IMG/VR virus record: IMGVR_UViG_2657244940_000004
DNA: 7,569 nt
DNA from: a virus
Lineage: Duplodnaviria; Heunggongvirae; Uroviricota; Caudoviricetes
Reading direction: 5' to 3' (one strand)
Shown here: piece by piece, positions 1 to 7,321 of the stretch
How the letters are laid out: every line of letters starts with the position of its first letter
Numbering within the stretch: position 1 is the first letter of the stretch
Position numbers and translations under genes: made by a program
The notes under the pieces: generated by a model
Database searches by the model: none
What the model saw: only the letters and a program-made list of their open reading frames with translations
What the model was told of the DNA's origin: nothing

Positions 1-494
1 ATAAACATCCCGTAGGCATGGCCTGGTGACAGTGGAATAACTTTGAACATCTCTGTCGCCGGGATACCTTCCAGTACAGGCCAGAAAGAGCCATCATCAA
101 GCCCGAGATCGCGACGTTCGGTTGCCAGCATAATGAGATCGGCATATTTCACAGGCGTGCTCATAACAGGAGGTAACCCGTATTTCTCACGGATTACGGC
201 GTCTATTTTTTCTTCCATCCGTTTATAGTCAGGAAGAAGGCGTTTCAGTGGAGCTGGGATGTCCTGGCAATACGCTTCTGTTGCATCATGCATTAACGCT
301 TCAAAAGCAAATTCCTGCGGTACCAGCTGGCTGCAAAGCACCGCATGTTGGGCGACGCTGTAGAAGTGTGAAAGATGTCCTGCAAAGCGACAGATATTTG
401 AAAGGGAAACCGCGATATCGTTAATCACGATGTCGTCTTTATTTATCCTGTCATAATAAAAATGCTTCCCGGAAAAAGTTTTAATAAATGACAT
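1..494 (-). CDS. yfdR: HD-domain phosphohydrolase, YfdR-like (5'-deoxynucleotidase family); C-terminus lies outside the window
   Basis: Minus-strand translation from ATG (complement of 492-494) reads MSFIKTFSGKHFYYDRINKDDIVINDIAVSLSNICRFAGHLSHFYSVAQHAVLCSQLVPQEFAFEALMHDATEAYCQDIP... with no stop to position 1 (164 codons). It carries the H...HD metal-binding signature (GHLSH, LMHDATEAY) of the HD superfamily. GGAG lies 8 nt upstream of the ATG (rc of 503-506). Not in the ORF track because it runs off the edge. Symbol is from recall of the E. coli CPS-53 prophage protein, not a search. Confidence 0.8.
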   Translation of the reverse strand, partial: MSFIKTFSGKHFYYDRINKDDIVINDIAVSLSNICRFAGHLSHFYSVAQHAVLCSQLVPQEFAFEALMHDATEAYCQDIPAPLKRLLPDYKRMEEKIDAVIREKYGLPPVMSTPVKYADLIMLATERRDLGLDDGSFWPVLEGIPATEMFKVIPLSPGHAYGMF

Positions 495-588
495 TTTGTT
501 CTCCACTTTATATGCGCTGCACCGCGCTGAATTTTGGTTAAAGAAAACCCTCGCCATCAGGCGATTATTGAGTCAATTATGTTTCCAT

Positions 589-610
589 AAATGCCCCCGC
601 AGGGGCATTT
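589..610 (-). terminator. Perfect 9-bp stem hairpin (AAATGCCCC-CGCA-GGGGCATTT) between the yfdQ-like stop and the yfdR-like start; possible intrinsic terminator or attenuator
   Basis: Perfect inverted repeat 589-597 / 602-610 with a 4-nt loop, 13 nt downstream of the yfdQ-like stop on the minus strand. The following minus-strand sequence is only moderately U-rich (AUUUAUGGAAACAUAAUU), so this is not a canonical terminator. Confidence 0.35.
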
Positions 611-622
611 GCAGTAATGAAA

Positions 623-1447
623 TCAGGCGGTGAAAGTACCAATAAAGGTTTCTACTTTGCTGTCTTTAAATTTCTCAACAAGCAGATCACGAAATTCGTT
701 AGCCATTTCTTCCTGCACTGCTTCCAGCTGAATAATGCGCAGAACCAGTACAGGACGATCGCCAGTGATAATGCTGAGGCGTAATTTAAACGGACGTTCT
801 TTCAGGCCTTCAAACGGAACGCATTTAAATTCAAATACCACTGGCATAATGTCTTTGGTCTTCGCTTCGACAGACTCCATCAGGGAGCGTTTGCCGCTGA
901 AGTCATTATCTTCAAAATCAGCGGTCTGGTTTGCTTCAATCGTGATTTTACGGACTGCCGCAGCCGCTTTTGTTGCCTTAATAGCGTCACCATTAGCATC
1001 AAAGCCCACAAGATAGTCGGCCCAGTCTTCAATCCATTCTGCCAGTGACTTCTGGGAGTTACGCTCGCCGTTAACAGACAACAGAGCAGAGAACGGTGCT
1101 GTCTTTTTCAGTTTGAGTGTGGCGGTGTTATCTGCGTGACCTGGTTCACCAATAGTACCCAGGTTAAGCACACTGACGGCACGCATATTATCGGCATCGA
1201 TAAAGCAGCGGGTGCCTTCATCTGCAAGATCTTTAGAATAACGGGTAAAGTCATCGATGCTGGCAGTGGAAAGCGCACCACGGAAACGGAAGCGATTTAA
1301 ATTAAATTTTTCCAGATCATGAATGCGGAAATTCTCAGGCAATGCCACAGCATCGGCACCAATCTTACTGATAATTTCATTAACACCCTGAGCAGAAATA
1401 AGGGCATGGATTTGATTAATTGCGGTTGCGTCTAAGTTCTGAGACAT
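623..1447 (-). CDS. yfdQ: YfdQ-like prophage protein (DUF2303-type), 274 aa, function unknown
   Basis: 274-aa ORF with protein-like composition. GAGGA sits 6 nt upstream of the ATG (rc of 1448-1465). Length and N-terminus match my recollection of the E. coli CPS-53 YfdQ family. Sits between the yfdP-like and yfdR-like genes on the same strand. Confidence 0.85.
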
Positions 1448-1512: not shown

Positions 1513-1875
1513 TTAATGACCTGCTGCGCGGAGTTTTCCGTCAGGTTCACCGGCAAGAGTCAGTAATTGTCCCTGGTCTTCCTGCAGAATAGTCAGGCGA
1601 CCACCTCGATTGACATACATCGGCGTTTCGGTGGTGTCTTCTTCGGAAATTTTCCCGCGGTTAGTCGGGCGAACATATGAGAGTTTGTGTTTGATTTTCA
1701 CACGGTTCTCATCAAACGGTTCGATGTCCAGATTGACCGAGACTTTACCTTTGTTTTTCGTGTTCATCACACCGGAAGCGACTTCACTGAGAACTGCGCC
1801 GAGTTTGGTTTCAAATACGCCGCCGTCCAGTTCTACGATAAATACCTGCACATCAGTACTGCGTACGCTAGCCAT
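1513..1875 (-). CDS. yfdP: YfdP-like small prophage protein, 120 aa; first gene of the leftward early operon
   Basis: The ORF track gives a 182-aa frame (1513..2061), but the N-terminal 62 codons are Cys/His/Arg-rich with no ribosome-binding site. The internal ATG at complement of 1873-1875 (MASVRSTDVQVFIVELDGG...) is preceded by GAGGAG 7-8 nt upstream (rc of 1879-1890) and gives a 120-aa product of normal composition. Confidence 0.7.
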   Translation of the reverse strand: MASVRSTDVQVFIVELDGGVFETKLGAVLSEVASGVMNTKNKGKVSVNLDIEPFDENRVKIKHKLSYVRPTNRGKISEEDTTETPMYVNRGGRLTILQEDQGQLLTLAGEPDGKLRAAGH

Positions 1876-2216
1876 TTTGCTGCTCCTCATCATATCGACC
1901 CTGCAAGGTCGGTTGGTTTCTCCACAAAACAGAGAAGAACACCTGCGGTGGCAGCCGCCCGGATGGATTGGGTTATGAGCCCGTCGTCCGGTGATGCTCT
2001 TCTCTGTTTTGTAAAAAGAGCGGTACCAGCCGGAAGCAAGTGTACAAACTGGTACCGCCAAAGCAGTGGCTGTTGTGGTGACCGGTGCTGATCTCCGGCT
2101 TGCGGTTATTTCAGACTCTCACGGGCGTTTAATTGCCCCGCCGAGCAGCTATTTTCCGCAATAGCTGCAATGTCTTTCGCGCATCAGCCTGCGCATTCAC
2201 CACAACTCTAAAAACA

Positions 2217-2269
2217 AATGTAGGATATCCAACATGTGAGTGTCAAGAGTTTATGTTGGTTATCCTACA
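2217..2269 (-). promoter_or_regulatory. PL-like leftward early promoter with OL-like operators
   Basis: Minus strand: -35 TTGACA (rc of 2241-2246), 18-nt spacer, -10 TACATT (rc of 2217-2222). 16-bp imperfect palindromes TGTAGGATATCCAACA (2219-2234, overlapping the -10) and TGTTGGTTATCCTACA (2254-2269, upstream of the -35). The 30-nt promoter core matches the PR core at 3021-3050 at 27 of 30 positions. Confidence 0.6.
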
Positions 2270-2286
2270 TAAAAAGATAGGCTCAT

Positions 2287-2312
2287 AAAAAAACCGGGGA
2301 TACCCCGGTTTT
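2287..2312 (-). terminator. Intrinsic terminator downstream of the repressor gene (analogous to lambda tIMM); flanked by A- and T-runs so possibly bidirectional
   Basis: GC-rich hairpin CCGGGG-ATA-CCCCGG (2294-2308) flanked by AAAAAAA (2287-2293) and TTTT (2309-2312). On the minus strand it reads CCGGGGUAUCCCCGG followed by UUUUUUU, about 20 nt past the repressor stop (2333). Confidence 0.6.
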
Positions 2313-2332: not shown

Positions 2333-2986
2333 TCAAAAATCCATTATTACTTGTTTGACAAGACCAACTATTCTGCAGTTCTCACCGCATTCAATAGTTT
2401 TATAGTTAGGATTTAGTGGGACGAGATACCTGTTCGGCCAGTCCTCAACAAATTTTTTGAGTGTCGCTTCTTGCCCACCATTGATATGGGCAACAACGAT
2501 TTTTCCGTTAATACACTCTGTATCAATAATATCTGGCTCTACGATAACGATAGAACCTTCTGGTATCGATGGTGAGCCGAGGGGATTGGTCATTGAATCA
2601 CCACGGACCCGTAGTGCAAATGCCATTTCTGATACAAGGGCGGTAGTATAAACCCACTCTTCAGCATCTTCTTTCCTGACACCAGGCTCCGTCATTGTCC
2701 ATGAACCCGCCTGAACCCACGAGATGAGGGGGACTTTTTTAACTGCGAATATTTCAGGTTTTAGATTTATCTTTGGTTCAGGCGAGCCTTTTCCGCTAAC
2801 AAGCCACAGAGGATCGCATTTAAGTGCGTTGGCTAGGGCTTGAAGGTTGGCTCCATTTGGTTGGTAGTCGTCCTTTTCCCATCCAGTAACCGTGACACGG
2901 TTCACACCAGTCAAATCAGCCAGTGCTTGTTGTGTCAGGTTCAGTTCTTTTCGCCTTTGGCGAATACGATCACTCATGTTCATCAT
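2333..2986 (-). CDS. cI: Prophage repressor, P22 c2 / lambda cI-like (N-terminal HTH_XRE plus C-terminal S24 LexA-type autopeptidase)
   Basis: N-terminal HTH (DRIRQRRKELNLTQQALADLTGVNRVTVTGWE). Ala-Gly cleavage motif VQAG in PLISWVQAGSW (lambda cI HVQAGMF, P22 c2 ISWVSAGQW). Catalytic Ser in RVRGDSM and Lys in GQEATLKKF. Aligns along its length with recalled P22 c2. Start chosen at the ATG of MMNMSDRIR (rc of 2984-2986), which has AGGA 8 nt upstream; the track's earlier ATG at 3010 would overlap the predicted PRM -10 and has no SD. Confidence 0.9.
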   Translation of the reverse strand: MMNMSDRIRQRRKELNLTQQALADLTGVNRVTVTGWEKDDYQPNGANLQALANALKCDPLWLVSGKGSPEPKINLKPEIFAVKKVPLISWVQAGSWTMTEPGVRKEDAEEWVYTTALVSEMAFALRVRGDSMTNPLGSPSIPEGSIVIVEPDIIDTECINGKIVVAHINGGQEATLKKFVEDWPNRYLVPLNPNYKTIECGENCRIVGLVKQVIMDF

Positions 2987-3050
2987 GTAGGCAATCCTAC
3001 CACATGCCAATGTAGGATTCTTGACATTGGCATGTTGGATATCCTACATT
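2986..3050. promoter_or_regulatory. OR-like tripartite operator with divergent PR (rightward, cro) and PRM (leftward, repressor)
   Basis: Three sites about 22-25 bp apart centre to centre: TGTAGGCAATCCTACC (2986-3001, overlapping the repressor SD and start), TGTAGGATTCTTGACA (3011-3026, half-site-like, contains the PR -35) and TGTTGGATATCCTACA (3033-3048, exact reverse complement of the OL site at 2219-2234, overlapping the PR -10). PR: -35 TTGACA 3021-3026, 18-nt spacer, -10 TACATT 3045-3050. Putative PRM on the minus strand: -10 TACATT (rc of 3009-3014) with a poor -35, as expected for an activator-dependent maintenance promoter. Confidence 0.65.
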
Positions 3051-3081: not shown

Positions 3082-3279
3082 ATGCGGAAATCCGACGTGA
3101 TTAATTATTTCGGCGGAGTTTGTAAAACCGCCGAAGCCCTAGGTATTAAGCATCCGTCTGTTTCAGAGTGGCCTGAGATTATTCCTGAAGGCCGAGCGTA
3201 CCAGTTAGAAAAAATTACTAACGGGAAACTGAAAGTTGACGTGTCTTTATATCAAAAGACTAACAGTGCTGCGGCATAA
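3082..3279 (+). CDS. cro: Cro-like repressor, P22 Cro family (65 aa)
   Basis: MRKSDVINYFGGVCKTAEALGIKHPSVSEWPEIIPEGRAYQLEKITNGKLKV aligns with recalled P22 Cro (MYKKDVIDHFGTQRAVAKALGISDAAVSQWKEVIPEKDAYRLEIVTAGALKY). GGGAG sits 6 nt upstream of the ATG. The gene is divergent from the repressor and immediately downstream of PR. Confidence 0.85.
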   Translation: MRKSDVINYFGGVCKTAEALGIKHPSVSEWPEIIPEGRAYQLEKITNGKLKVDVSLYQKTNSAAA

Positions 3280-3306: not shown

Positions 3307-3885
3307 GTGGGTAAAGAACCTGAATGGAAAGTTGATAAACAACCAGCATGGCTGGTGGCAGCAATACGAAGAACGATTGCTGATTTACCTCATGGCTATG
3401 AGGAAGCAGCAGAAATTCTTGGTTTGTATAAATCTGATGATATCACCCCAGCAAAAGATCAATTGCATAACAGACTGCGTAGCGGTGGGGATCAAATTTT
3501 TCCACTTGAGTGGGCCATGGTTTTACAGGATGCCAGTGGTACCAGGCATGTAACAGATGCAATAGCCCGTCGTAGTAATGGGGTGTTTGTGCCGCTGGTG
3601 GTCATTGATGACATTGACAATGGTGACATTAATCAGCGGCTGATGGAGTCAATAGAATGGATTGGCAAGCATTCCCAGTACTTACGCAAGGCAACTGCTG
3701 ATGGAGTTATTGACCAAGCTGAACGCGAGCAGATCGAAGAGAACAGCTACCAAGTAATGGCGAAGTGGCAGGAGCATTTGACACTGTTATTTCGTGTTTT
3801 TTGTGCGCCGGAAAAGAGTAACGCCCGCGAGTGTGCAGCTCCGGGCGCCGTGGCGTGTCGTGACTGTGGAGAAACTAACGCATGA
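3307..3885 (+). CDS. Hypothetical early-right protein (192 aa); by position it could be a cII-type lysogeny regulator, unverified
   Basis: GTG start with GAGGA 8 nt upstream. Protein-like composition with acidic patches and a Cys-containing C-terminal tail (CAAPGAVACRDCGETNA). The stop overlaps the next ATG (ATGA at 3882-3885). I do not recognise a family from memory. Confidence 0.65.
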   Translation: MGKEPEWKVDKQPAWLVAAIRRTIADLPHGYEEAAEILGLYKSDDITPAKDQLHNRLRSGGDQIFPLEWAMVLQDASGTRHVTDAIARRSNGVFVPLVVIDDIDNGDINQRLMESIEWIGKHSQYLRKATADGVIDQAEREQIEENSYQVMAKWQEHLTLLFRVFCAPEKSNARECAAPGAVACRDCGETNA

Positions 3886-4484
3886 ACAGTTTAACGGCAA
3901 ATAACCGTTTGTCGCAACAGCTGGTGGTCAGTGTCGCTGCACACCTGTTGTTACGGCATGAATGCAGATTACCAAATCACCTGGCTGTAAGTAACCACAG
4001 AGAACTTTACCTGACTGTGGGGGGCGAGTTGTGCAGGAACTTAACCGCTGGTTTCGTGACGGAAGAGGACTTTATGTTCATGTTATTCGTTGGGAGCCAG
4101 AAACACAGCGCGTTATCTATCTTCGCAAAGACTACCAGCATGAGTGCTTTAGTCCTTTGTGGAAATTCAGGCGTGATTTTGTTGAGTGTGAAGGACCACC
4201 AGCATATTGATTCTGCAATTCCGGGACGTTACACTGCTCAGGCACCTTATAAAGCGGGTGCCGGGGGTCGCAGCCCGGAATTGTCAACGGCGATATATGA
4301 CGCGCCAGCGTCTTTTTTATCGTCCGCGCTCACGCACGCCAGAATTATGGTGGGCTGGGCAGGGGAGCCGAAAGGCTCGCCGGTCTCCGTTGACGCCGGT
4401 ACTGCGAACCCTGTTCAGTCTGCCACCAGTGAGTTTCGCAGCTCCGGTGGTGGAAGTTTTCCACAGTCAACGGAGGCTGCCATC

Positions 4485-5030
4485 ATGGCTACGATCCCAA
4501 CCCTCACTCAACCTGAAATTGCCATCGTTGATGGTCAGGCTGTTACTTCATCCCTGGCTGTTGCCAACTTCTTCTCCAAACGTCATGACGATGTACTGAA
4601 AAAGATCCGCACGCTTGAATGCTCTGCATCATTCACTTCCCGCAATTTTTCGGTGAGTGATTACACCGATTGCACAGGCCGCAAACTACCTTGCTATCAA
4701 ATAACCCGCGACGGCTTTGCGTTTCTTGCTATGGGTTTCACGGGTAAACGTGCTGCCCAGTTCAAAGAGGCATACATCAATGCCTTTAACCAGATGGAGA
4801 AACAGCTTTCAAATCCCTCTGTACTGAGCGACGTTGCACATAACGCCAGCGTTCTCTATTCCTACATTTCATCAATTCATCAGGTCTGGCTGCAGCAGCT
4901 TTATCCCATGTTGGCAAAAGCCGAATCCCCGCTGGCTGTAAGTCTGTATGACCGCATCAACGACGCGGCGCTACTGGCCAGTCTCATAAATTTGTCGCTG
5001 AACCCTTCAGAGGTAAGGGGGCGCAAATGA
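4485..5030 (+). CDS. rha: Rha-family phage regulatory protein (pRha domain), 181 aa from an internal start; the same frame is open upstream to 3882
   Basis: MATIPTLTQPEIAIVDGQAVTSSLAVANFFSKRHDDVLKKIRTLECSASF...YQITRDGFAFLAMGFTGKRAAQFKEAYINAFNQMEKQL matches the Rha signature (VTSS..VA..F.KRH..VL..I, TRDGF..L.MGFTGK.A..FKEAYI..FN.ME) recalled for this family. GGAGG sits 8 nt upstream of the ATG at 4485. The track ORF (3882..5030, 382 aa) would add 201 N-terminal codons of atypical composition. Confidence 0.85.
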   Translation: MATIPTLTQPEIAIVDGQAVTSSLAVANFFSKRHDDVLKKIRTLECSASFTSRNFSVSDYTDCTGRKLPCYQITRDGFAFLAMGFTGKRAAQFKEAYINAFNQMEKQLSNPSVLSDVAHNASVLYSYISSIHQVWLQQLYPMLAKAESPLAVSLYDRINDAALLASLINLSLNPSEVRGRK

Positions 5031-5859: not shown

Positions 5860-6135
5860 CTACCTGTTTTCTCGTGTGTGCCACAGGCGCAATACATAAA
5901 TAGTCTGGCCATTAAGTTCGTAACGGATTTCGTACTCGCCAGCAAAAATCCGTCTGACCTCCCTGGGTTCAAACTGAAACAACTGTTCTCCCATACGTGG
6001 ATGAGTTAACAGAATGACCGGTGCCTGTGTCAGGGATTGCACCGTTCTGGCGGCCGCAGGTTTACTGGCCAGCACCAGAAAATCATATAACCGCGCCAAA
6101 TCAGAAAGCGCCTTACTGGTCCACTTCAGTTCCAT
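5860..6135 (-). CDS. Type II toxin, ParE/RelE superfamily (91 aa)
   Basis: MELKWTSKALSDLARLYDFL...GEYEIRYELNGQTIYVLRLWHTRE follows the ParE/RelE fold pattern (N-terminal helices, C-terminal Y.I.Y......I.RV.H.R). Its ATG overlaps the stop of the upstream RHH gene (TGATG on the minus strand at 6133-6137). Confidence 0.85.
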   Translation of the reverse strand: MELKWTSKALSDLARLYDFLVLASKPAAARTVQSLTQAPVILLTHPRMGEQLFQFEPREVRRIFAGEYEIRYELNGQTIYVLRLWHTRENR

Positions 6136-6419
6136 CAGCGTGGCACCGGTAACGGATTGTCAGTACTGAGGCTGTCCGCCCAGGCCTGTACAGCCTGATG
6201 GTCGATAACCTGTCCGGATGTCACATCGTCCAGGGCTTCCAGCGTCAGGCGATTACGCTCCTCCTCCTGGGCAAGCCATGCAGAAAGCGCCTGTTTGATA
6301 ACCCAGCCCCGGGAGCGTTCCAGCCTGGCGGCCATCTGGTCGACTTTATCAGCCATAGGTAATGGCACATGCGCGGTAATGACTTTTGTTGCTTGTGCGG
6401 TATTGTTTTTCATTTGCAT
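6135..6419 (-). CDS. Type II antitoxin, ribbon-helix-helix (CopG/ParD-like), 94 aa
   Basis: Ribbon-helix-helix signature in VITAHVPLPMADKVDQMAARLERSRGWVIKQALSAWL, followed by an acidic C-terminal region typical of toxin-neutralising tails. Sits upstream of and overlapping the toxin. An alternative start at the third codon (ATG rc of 6411-6413) is possible. Confidence 0.8.
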   Translation of the reverse strand: MQMKNNTAQATKVITAHVPLPMADKVDQMAARLERSRGWVIKQALSAWLAQEEERNRLTLEALDDVTSGQVIDHQAVQAWADSLSTDNPLPVPR

Positions 6420-6474: not shown

Positions 6475-7321
6475 GGCAAATAATGCGCGTCAGCGCATGT
6501 AAGGCGGCATACGGTGGTTACATGTAGCACAGGTGTGAAACCGCCGAAGCCCGGCGTAAGCCGGTACATATTGATAGATTTCACCTTACCCATCCCCAGC
6601 CCTGCTAAGCCATACCCGCTTTCAGCCATGACAGAGCTTCTGTGCGCGGTCGGAGTGGTCCCGACGAGGGTTTACCCGAAGTCGGGGCGTATCTCCGCGT
6701 TAGCGGGCCGTCAGGGCCGCTTACGAGCGTGTACTCGATACGTCCAGCCAGAAGACTGGCAGCGATGACAATGTAGTTACAACATTCATAATTAAAAGCG
6801 ATGTTGTTCCCGCCCTTTGGGCGGGGGCGGCCTCGCTTTTCAGTTATGAGGGGTGGGCACGGTGCTGCGTTTGTGTGGTGTTTTTATTCCTGATGTCTTT
6901 TTGCTGTGGTTTCAGAACGGTGAGGTTCGGGGCCCGCGCGTCAGCGTGGGAGGTGCATATCAGTCTGTCCACAGGACAGGCATTGAACAGGTTTTCTTTT
7001 TAAATGGAAGTAATTAAGTAGTTTAAAGGAAATACAGTACTGGAGTTTAAAAGAAACATTGCACCCTGTAACGCCTGCGGCTGGCGCTTTATAGCATTAA
7101 CGGTTGTAACCTTATGGAGAAGTCCCTTGCAGTTAAATGTGGATAAACAGAATTACCCGTCTGTGAGACGTGTTTTGCGTGAAAAACAGGGGGAGCATGA
7201 TGAGCCGGAAGGCAGATGATGAGGCTGTTTTTTGTGTGCTGTGCTGCTTTTTTGTGCGTCGCCGGGCTTCAGACGTGCGGAAGCCTCCGGCGCAGGCCGG
7301 ATTATTCAGATGAGGTCAAAC

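Follow-up and report, generated by a model that had tools for sequence, protein, structure and literature searches.

The C4 antisense RNA of phages P1 and P7 and the CI RNA of P4 are small RNAs that RNase P releases from the leaders of early operons, and the N leader of phage lambda carries a hairpin that is sensitive to RNase III. The put RNA of phage HK022 is about 70 nt long, comprises two stem-loops with a triplex and, in its putL copy, is found right after PL (PMC9378689). Here we describe the early leftward leader of a lambdoid prophage in IMG/VR virus record IMGVR_UViG_2657244940_000004 (Caudoviricetes), a stretch of 7,569 nt which is referred to below as the window and which represents the immunity region of the prophage. 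The leader occupies about 335 nt between the start of the PL transcript and the ATG of the first leftward gene. The original prediction, made from the sequence alone, had proposed that it holds a nut-like antitermination or processing site or, failing that, an unannotated small gene or RNA. We find that the leader consists of conserved structured-RNA modules and is not a lambda-style nut site. Its main parts are a tRNA-shaped domain (module B), an intrinsic terminator as judged by sequence, and a second domain closed by a long stem (module A); their coordinates are collected in Table 1.

The whole leader has a minimum free energy (MFE) of -148.1 kcal/mol, compared with -112.8 +/- 5.8 kcal/mol for shuffled sequences (z = -6.1; 0/100 shuffles as good), and its helices covary in homologues. 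Of the two hairpins singled out by the original prediction, the perfect 9-bp hairpin at 2145-2168 is present as described, as is the 5-bp GC hairpin at 2179-2194, and both lie within module B. Larger pairings had been overlooked, namely 2072-2081 with 2197-2206 (10/10), 2020-2029 with 2049-2058 (10/10), and 1924-1948 with 1988-2012 (25 nt). The suggestion that the leader might contain unannotated RNA is borne out by two covarying structured modules.

The helix order in module B is a 9-bp acceptor-like stem (helix P1), a junction of 3 nt, a hairpin resembling a D arm whose loop contains GG (P2), a variable insert, and a T-arm-like hairpin (P4) which stacks directly on the 3' strand of helix P1. 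The loop of P4 (UCAGC, 2087-2091) is complementary to that of P2 (GCUGA, 2184-2188), and it is plausible from the sequence that the two loops would give a base-paired "elbow". In the insert, the loop of hairpin P3a (GCGG, 2156-2159) can pair with CCGC at 2102-2105 to form a predicted pseudoknot.

The module B family was retrieved by scanning IMG/VR with an 18-nt pattern for the second hairpin (P4). This yielded at least 116 distinct instances; 100 of the 116 listed were kept, having the first hairpin upstream and good pairing of helices P1 and P2. The pattern fixes P4 and its loop (L4), the sequences of helices P1 and P2 lying outside it. Aligned copies share the frame P1, AAU, GCGCA-GGCUGA-UGCGC, an insert of variable length, AA, GCCGG-AGAUCAGCA-CCGGC and the 3' strand of helix P1. 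Covariation was measured on the 75 distinct module B sequences among the matches listed. Compensatory changes were found in 12/12 pairs of helix P1 and in 5/5 pairs of P2, the latter with 98% of cells paired. For the complete structure 88.9% of cells are paired, as against 28-43% when the partners are slid by 1-3 columns; this percentage and the conservation of P4 and L4 are inflated, because the pattern fixed P4/L4 and the members were filtered on pairing. The covariation score is 0.326, compared with 0.107 after shuffling, and none of 500 shuffles reaches the real score. On the PL-transcribed strand there are 39 G-U against 18 A-C combinations, an excess which fits an RNA read leftward. The only departures from invariance in the loop-loop pairing GCUGA/UCAGC are nine G-U cases and a single compensatory A-U case; being nearly invariant, the pairing is barely tested by covariation. 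As a negative control the same 18-mer was sought in bacterial genomes, where one of the 120 matches listed, on a contig of Stutzerimonas stutzeri, has the full two-part motif. The bacterial matches listed were almost all due to chance, in GC-rich genomes, and for this reason the scan gave no host range.

Module B has a tRNA-like topology and is not a canonical tRNA. In common with tRNAs it has the order of helices, the GG in the D-position loop, and a T-position hairpin stacked on the 3' acceptor strand. It further resembles tRNAs and phage tRNA clusters in the length of helix P1, which peaks at 7-9 bp, in the occurrence of CCA or NCCA directly after this helix in about one-fifth of copies (20/90 among the matches listed, compared with a mean of 3.9 at control offsets), and in having co-oriented tRNA neighbours in several phages. 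T-loop-type hairpins occur in some of the inserts. It differs from a canonical tRNA in possessing a junction of three rather than two nucleotides, a 5-bp D stem, a 9-nt "T loop" (AGAUCAGCA) instead of UUCRANY, and an elbow that would be made of five Watson-Crick pairs. The central arm is replaced by an insert of 26-178 nt; in the shortest members (26-27 nt) this is a single hairpin of 5-6 bp with a 5-6-nt loop (computed MFE fold) followed by a short tail. With tmRNA and YrlA (bacterial Y RNA) module B shares an arrangement in which the two ends of the RNA come together as an acceptor/T-arm-like unit and enclose a large variable middle for other functions, whereas it lacks a canonical T loop, G3-U70, a tag reading frame and a Ro-binding helix, and its Rfam scores are at chance level. 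The insert in one IMG/VR contig (L016) contains a hammerhead-like core, CUGAUGAGGCC-AUAA-GGCCGAAAC..., which scores below the Rfam gathering threshold.

The boxA-like string of the original prediction, CGCUCUUUUUAC, does exist on the PL transcript (reverse complement of 2011-2022), where it is made up of the 3' arm of the hairpin at 2020-2058 and the U-tract behind it (stem of 11-13 bp, -19.1 kcal/mol, then CUUUUUAC). By sequence criteria this "boxA" region is a conserved intrinsic terminator, located 14 nt downstream of module B. In the 99 distinct homologous leaders that were retrieved through module A, a GC-rich hairpin with a T-run is kept in 95, built from at least 10 different stem sequences (GGCGGUACCAG.., GGCGGCAUCC.., GCCCAUC.., GUCGGCGUC.. 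and others). Retention of hairpin and T-run despite differing stems is what marks a conserved intrinsic terminator. This terminator accompanies module A and not module B. Since it stands between PL and the first gene, the control of termination or processing that had been suggested for the leader is plausible.

Module A follows directly upon the U-tract, its 20-bp stem pairing 2012-1993 with 1943-1924. From 24 diverse sequences RNAalifold derived a structure of 31 pairs, in 10 of which compensatory changes are seen, and on the PL-transcribed strand there are 40 G-U against four A-C combinations. The near-perfect stem upstream of the first ribosome binding site is reminiscent of the lambda N-leader hairpin, from which it differs in enclosing a three-way core with a copy of the tRNA-fMet anticodon arm. 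A tRNA gene sequence matching this 13-nt hairpin is present in all 5426 of 5426 E. coli genomes, with a median of four copies; this gene encodes the initiator tRNA of E. coli. In the loci that we fetched, the phage genes for tRNA-Met(CAU) lack the GGG/CCC stem of the module A hairpin. The first early-left gene, whether yfdP-like or rdgC-like, always begins some 50-60 nt beyond module A. In prophage e14 of E. coli K-12 the gene ymfH overlies the e14 copy of terminator and module A, and is probably not a protein gene; the tRNA-fMet-like loop of this copy has decayed from CUCAUAA to UUAAUAA.

BLAST searches against phage and E. coli collections split the leader into two units with different distributions. 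The distal unit, comprising terminator and module A (approximately 1876-2060), is carried by thousands of prophages of E. coli, e14 among them, and by SfV, cdtI, ST64B and phiNP. Some part of the leader is matched in 2926 of the 5426 complete E. coli genomes and the full leader in 585. Module B is found at 97% identity in phage P1, in P1-like plasmids and in the Klebsiella-infecting phage IME207 (record name Salmonella phage IME207; recorded host Klebsiella), with boundaries exactly at the closing stem, and in many virulent Klebsiella and E. coli phages (T1-like, N4-like and Vi1-like) only its two ends match. It adjoins co-oriented tRNA genes in P1, IME207, KP591P1, ZCKP8 and several IMG/VR contigs. 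Among 120 loci listed, 27-31 carry a cI-type repressor with helix-turn-helix (HTH) and S24 domains upstream on the same strand; these repressors are very different in sequence, and Pfam confirmed eight of the eight sampled. Clustering of neighbouring open reading frames (ORFs) in the same loci revealed no enzyme partner, only the cI-type repressors upstream. With this as the one recurrent neighbour, it appears that the arrangement cI, PL, module B recurs in many temperate phages.

Several features suggest that the elements of the leader are exchanged as units. The slot just upstream of the terminator is occupied by three different elements (module B, SfV-type and cdtI-type) with a common 3' strand of helix P1, and on sequence grounds is a cassette site. 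In SfV, e14, ST64B, phiNP, LLS and a Klebsiella prophage the region from cI to the first gene measures 600-1000 nt and contains serial stem-closed elements. In virulent phages and in P1, module B alternates with a second cassette, the long stem of which (CACAAC-AGGUAAGAGCA...UGCUCUUACC-GUUGUG) resembles that of module A. Such arrays, CACAAC-AGGUAAGAGCA[cargo with T-loop hairpins]UGCUCUUACC-GUUGUG[module B]CACAAC, lie beside tRNA genes in six of our loci (L004, L005 and L007-L010; virulent Klebsiella and E. coli phages, and P1). The GUUGUG in these arrays can pair with either neighbouring CACAAC, and a further 100 nt or so upstream of the arrays is also conserved between unrelated phages. The prophage small RNAs AgvB, AsxR and Pas were considered in connection with the CACAAC motif and discarded, AgvB and AsxR being represented in Rfam without a match to the window and the Pas RNAs lying in late regions. 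In the first 70 nt or so after PL, SfV, e14, ST64B and phiNP share an element closed by a stem (GCGAACAGGCAGGACGCCCACGAAGUAGCC...GAUGAUUCGC), which is conserved and contains an inner hairpin that covaries (CCGGU/ACCGG, CCCGG/CCGGG, CCUGG/CCAGG). This element occupies the position of putL in HK022; it does not resemble put in sequence, and the window lacks it.

From these data we propose, with about even confidence, that the leader is built from interchangeable cassettes of structured RNA, arranged around an attenuating terminator, and that its modules are tRNA mimics. RNA polymerase leaving PL would pass module B (2206 to 2072), the terminator (2059 to 2013), module A, a small hairpin and the ribosome binding site. 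Part of this transcription would stop at 2013-2017 to give a structured RNA of about 200 nt, from which module B would be processed in the manner of a tRNA, with RNase P cutting at the stem's 5' end and the 3' end being trimmed, to leave a stable tRNA-mimic RNA. Read-through transcripts would carry module A, the long stem of which is likely to serve as an RNase III or insulating element before the first gene. The modules would act by tRNA mimicry at the very start of infection or induction, perhaps as decoys or competitors for tRNA-binding or tRNA-cutting host factors, which is our preferred guess on account of the tRNA-array contexts and the initiator anticodon arm. VapC-type toxins cut the anticodon arm of the initiator tRNA. 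A bolder version, which we hold to be doubtful, is that module B represents an undescribed and widespread class of phage RNA, a tRNA-shaped scaffold with a Watson-Crick elbow and variable cargo. Its cassettes would move between temperate and virulent phages (lambdoid, P1, T1-like, N4-like and Vi1-like) and would be transcribed either first, from early promoters, or along with tRNA arrays; together with the module A mimic they would act as RNA-only countermeasures or decoys against tRNA-binding or tRNA-cleaving host factors, such as anticodon nucleases of the VapC type.

A number of points tell against this proposal, in addition to the inflated pairing figures and the barely tested elbow mentioned above. 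CCA follows helix P1 in only some 22% of the copies, and in the window the 9-bp helix is followed by AGCCA. The T- and D-loops of module B are non-canonical, ARAGORN found no tRNA or tmRNA genes in the window, and the Rfam tRNA model (RF00005) gave no match to module B at E <= 10. The loop of the terminator, at 19 nt, is atypically long, and because of this a simple scanner did not call the terminator. The decoy function itself is a guess.

The most serious rival, which we regard as improbable, takes module B to be a put-like cis-acting antiterminator, the nascent RNA binding to RNA polymerase and causing read-through of 2013-2059 and later terminators in place of N. Its position immediately after PL is that of putL in HK022 (PMC9378689), no N-like gene is present in the window, a conserved terminator follows within 14 nt, and members of the family recur downstream of cI-type repressors and ahead of long untranslated tRNA arrays. 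However, module B has no sequence similarity to putL or putR, its architecture is not the two-stem-loop, triplex one of put, and it occurs once in the window with no putR-like partner, whereas put has a left and a right copy. Nor is there a family-wide link to terminators, which show no enrichment in the 250 nt that follow family members (22/84, compared with 19-22 in three controls), the terminator of this leader keeping company with module A; furthermore, the 26-178-nt inserts, the enrichment of CCA and the tRNA features would be left unexplained. A smaller probability still attaches to an immunity RNA of the C4/CI type, in which RNase P would cut out module B to act as an antisense RNA on a transcript of its own or of a superinfecting phage, and thereby control termination or translation. 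Like such RNAs, module B is embedded in an early leader, has a long closing stem and two GC hairpins with stems resembling those of C4 (GCGC.., GCCGG..), and is followed by a terminator; a true C4/isrK switch, moreover, is present on the rightward side of the window. Against this, the models of the C4 clan miss the leader even at E = 10, the hairpin by the 3' strand and the variable insert are differently arranged, the conserved loops are complementary to each other and not to any site found by eye in the leader, and the same core occurs in virulent phages which have no immunity system. The view that these are selfish or neutral cassettes, mobile structured insertions tolerated in untranslated phage DNA such as leaders and tRNA clusters, seems to us about as improbable as the put-like one. 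It would account for near-identical copies in unrelated phages that end exactly at helix P1, for the arrays of alternating cassettes with common GUUGUG/CACAAC junctions, for the use of one slot by three cassette types, and for the highly variable inserts. It does not sit well with loops that are strongly conserved across very divergent closing stems while pairing is kept by compensation, which points to selection on the RNA fold, or with the strand asymmetry in G-U pairs; and no transposase, target duplications or conserved termini outside the enterobacterial copies were found.

The two readings that start from the original prediction fare worse. A lambda-type nut site, at which boxA and a boxB hairpin would recruit N and Nus factors for antitermination, has in its favor the boxA-like string and the 5-bp GC hairpin, both on the PL transcript, and a position between PL and the first gene like that of nutL. 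We consider it highly unlikely. When the window was shuffled 200 times, 118 of the shuffled sequences had one or more matches to CGCTCTTTWA with one mismatch, so the motif is at chance level, besides forming part of the terminator; the supposed boxB hairpin is an arm of a larger conserved four-helix domain and has a 6-nt loop, GGCUGA, whereas a lambda boxB is an unattached 5-bp stem carrying a GNRA-like pentaloop. In addition, the boxA-like string lies about 160 nt 3' of the proposed boxB, whereas in the lambda nut site boxA (CGCUCUUA-like) is found a few nucleotides 5' of boxB; the original prediction had itself remarked on the unusual order, and both order and spacing are wrong for nut. It had also reported the absence of an N-like gene, and we likewise found no N-like ORF among the window ORFs and Pfam results. 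That the leader encodes one or more unannotated small proteins has next to no probability. ORFs of 32-134 amino acids do overlap it, and ORFs have been annotated over the region in mEp460, e14 (ymfH) and others. These annotations vary in strand and frame among the records; none of the leader ORFs has a Pfam match, a ribosome binding site is lacking, and homologues differ by frame-breaking indels (1, 2, 3, 4, 9, 20, 22 and 26 nt were seen) together with paired compensatory substitutions. An extended form of the first leftward ORF starting at an in-frame TTG at 2061 is not credible either, because the homologues show indels that are not multiples of three and compensatory changes of the RNA type here.

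Rfam 15, searched with the whole window and the leader alone at E values up to 10, returned only chance-level matches to the leader, as it did for other family members and loci; the best was TLS-PK1 (16.6 bits against a gathering score of 80, E = 0.62). None of the models of the C4 clan (CL00128) matched 1880-2215 at E <= 10. Comparison with the HK022 PL and PR regions gave only chance words of 10 nt or less, and a second module B core was not found in the window. Inspection by eye, no systematic search having been made, revealed no convincing target site for the loops in the leader. Rfam 15 describes neither the scaffold and its distribution over unrelated phages nor the motif in module A; tRNA mimics and processed RNAs embedded in leaders are already known kinds of RNA. 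The literature that we searched for the module B core sequences, tRNA-like phage RNA, ymfH and ST64B held no relevant description, and other papers may hold one.

Over the leader, the closest records are those of Stx2c-converting phages and of phage mEp460, with 98-99% identity (BLAST). Two positional claims of the original prediction agree with our annotation: a transcript starting near 2210 fits the sigma-70-like PL, which mirrors PR at 3021-3050, and the first supported start codon is at 1875, behind a Shine-Dalgarno sequence. The YfdP-like product of this first gene belongs to no Pfam family. Pairing of the linker between module B and the terminator with the Shine-Dalgarno/AUG region, seen in the MFE fold, was rejected, since it does not track the changes in the downstream gene in homologues and has no covariation support.

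Table 1. Features of the early leftward leader and its surroundings (window coordinates)
Feature	Position	Strand	Basis or remark
YfdP-like first leftward gene	1513-1875	-	DUF2303 gene next
ATG of first leftward gene	1873-1875	-	
Shine-Dalgarno sequence GAGGAG of first leftward gene	1883-1888	-	
Small hairpin between module A and ribosome binding site	1894..1913	-	fold; homologues carry a different hairpin here
Module A, 89 nt, 20-bp long stem enclosing a three-way core	1924..2012	-	MFE -45.5 kcal/mol; covariation
Module A variable hairpin GCGG-CUGCCA-CCGC	1945..1958	-	lengths differ in homologues; base pairs covary
Module A arm CCGGA/UCCGG	1987-1991 / 1959-1963	-	flanks the GGG-CUCAUAA-CCC hairpin
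Module A hairpin GGG-CUCAUAA-CCC	1970..1982	-	13/13 identical to E. coli initiator-tRNA anticodon stem-loop
Intrinsic terminator, stem GGCGGUACCAG/CUGGUACCGCU, 19-nt loop, U-tract CUUUUUAC (U's 2013-2017)	2013..2059	-	inverted repeat, fold
Linker AGCCACUGCUUU	2060..2071	-	pairs with Shine-Dalgarno/AUG region 1870-1886 (AGCAG...UGGCU) in MFE fold
Module B, 135-nt tRNA-shaped domain	2072..2206	-	MFE -52.4 kcal/mol; covariation; starts ~4 nt after transcription start
P1 3' strand CACCACAAC	2072..2080	-	same 3' strand in three different cassettes of the slot
P4 hairpin GCCGG-AGAUCAGCA-CCGGU, T-arm position	2081..2099	-	abuts P1 3' strand
P3b small hairpin GGGC-AAUUAAAC-GCCC, variable insert	2123..2138	-	MFE only
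P3a hairpin, 9 bp, variable insert	2145..2168	-	inverted repeat and fold
P2 hairpin GCGCA-GGCUGA-UGCGC, D-arm position	2179..2194	-	covariation; loop nearly invariant
Junction AAU after P1 5' strand	2195-2197	-	
P1 5' strand GUUGUGGUG, acceptor-like closing stem	2198..2206	-	inverted repeat; covariation
PL, sigma-70-like, TTGACA-18-TACATT, 10/12	2246..2217	-	transcription start ~2210
OL operator pair	2218-2235 and 2253-2270		same 17-18-bp repeat as OR (2984-3000, 3031-3049)
10-bp GC hairpin and T-run at cI end	2290-2312		inverted-repeat search
cI-type repressor (HTH_3 and Peptidase_S24)	2333-3010	-	Pfam
cro	3082-3279		
CII-like gene	3307-3885		

More than half of the complete E. coli genomes carry part of this leader, and where it is annotated in the records listed it is usually as a hypothetical protein. 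Should the modules prove to be functional RNAs, many of these calls (ymfH in K-12 e14, ORFs of mEp460 and relatives of SfV) would be misannotations, and the early leader in a common N-less group of lambdoid phages would be RNA-rich and contain its own terminator, offering a tractable system for the gating of early-left expression without N. A tRNA-shaped family shared by temperate and virulent phages, and in many cases situated beside tRNA genes, would then also bear on why phages carry tRNAs and on tRNA-directed host defences, and the scaffold-plus-cargo design could serve as a natural RNA expression scaffold.

Elsewhere in the window, Rfam identified isrK (4242-4318, + strand, 58.7 bits) and C4 antisense RNA (4343-4430, + strand, 78.8 bits), both above the gathering score. 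The two lie inside a long ORF (3882-5030) for which Pfam gives Phage_ASH (amino acids 117-212) ahead of a Rha domain; the region looks like the immI-type RNA switch of P1 before an antirepressor, and the ORF may be non-coding in its 5' half. STnc100 has an Rfam family, as do AgvB and AsxR, and a sub-threshold STnc100-like match (23.4 bits, E = 0.067) was noted at 451-631 (- strand), just downstream of the DUF2303 gene. Stronger matches, also sub-threshold, occur in P1 (L005, 1824-1944) and Klebsiella phage Magnus (L009, 19-151). The segment 6460-6850 is poor in ORFs and GC-rich, has no Rfam match, and ends in a GC hairpin with a T-run near 6806-6845. Finally, two overlapping ORFs of 91 and 94 amino acids at 5860-6419 (- strand) are, by appearance, candidates for a RelE/ParE-type toxin and a CopG/RelB-type antitoxin.

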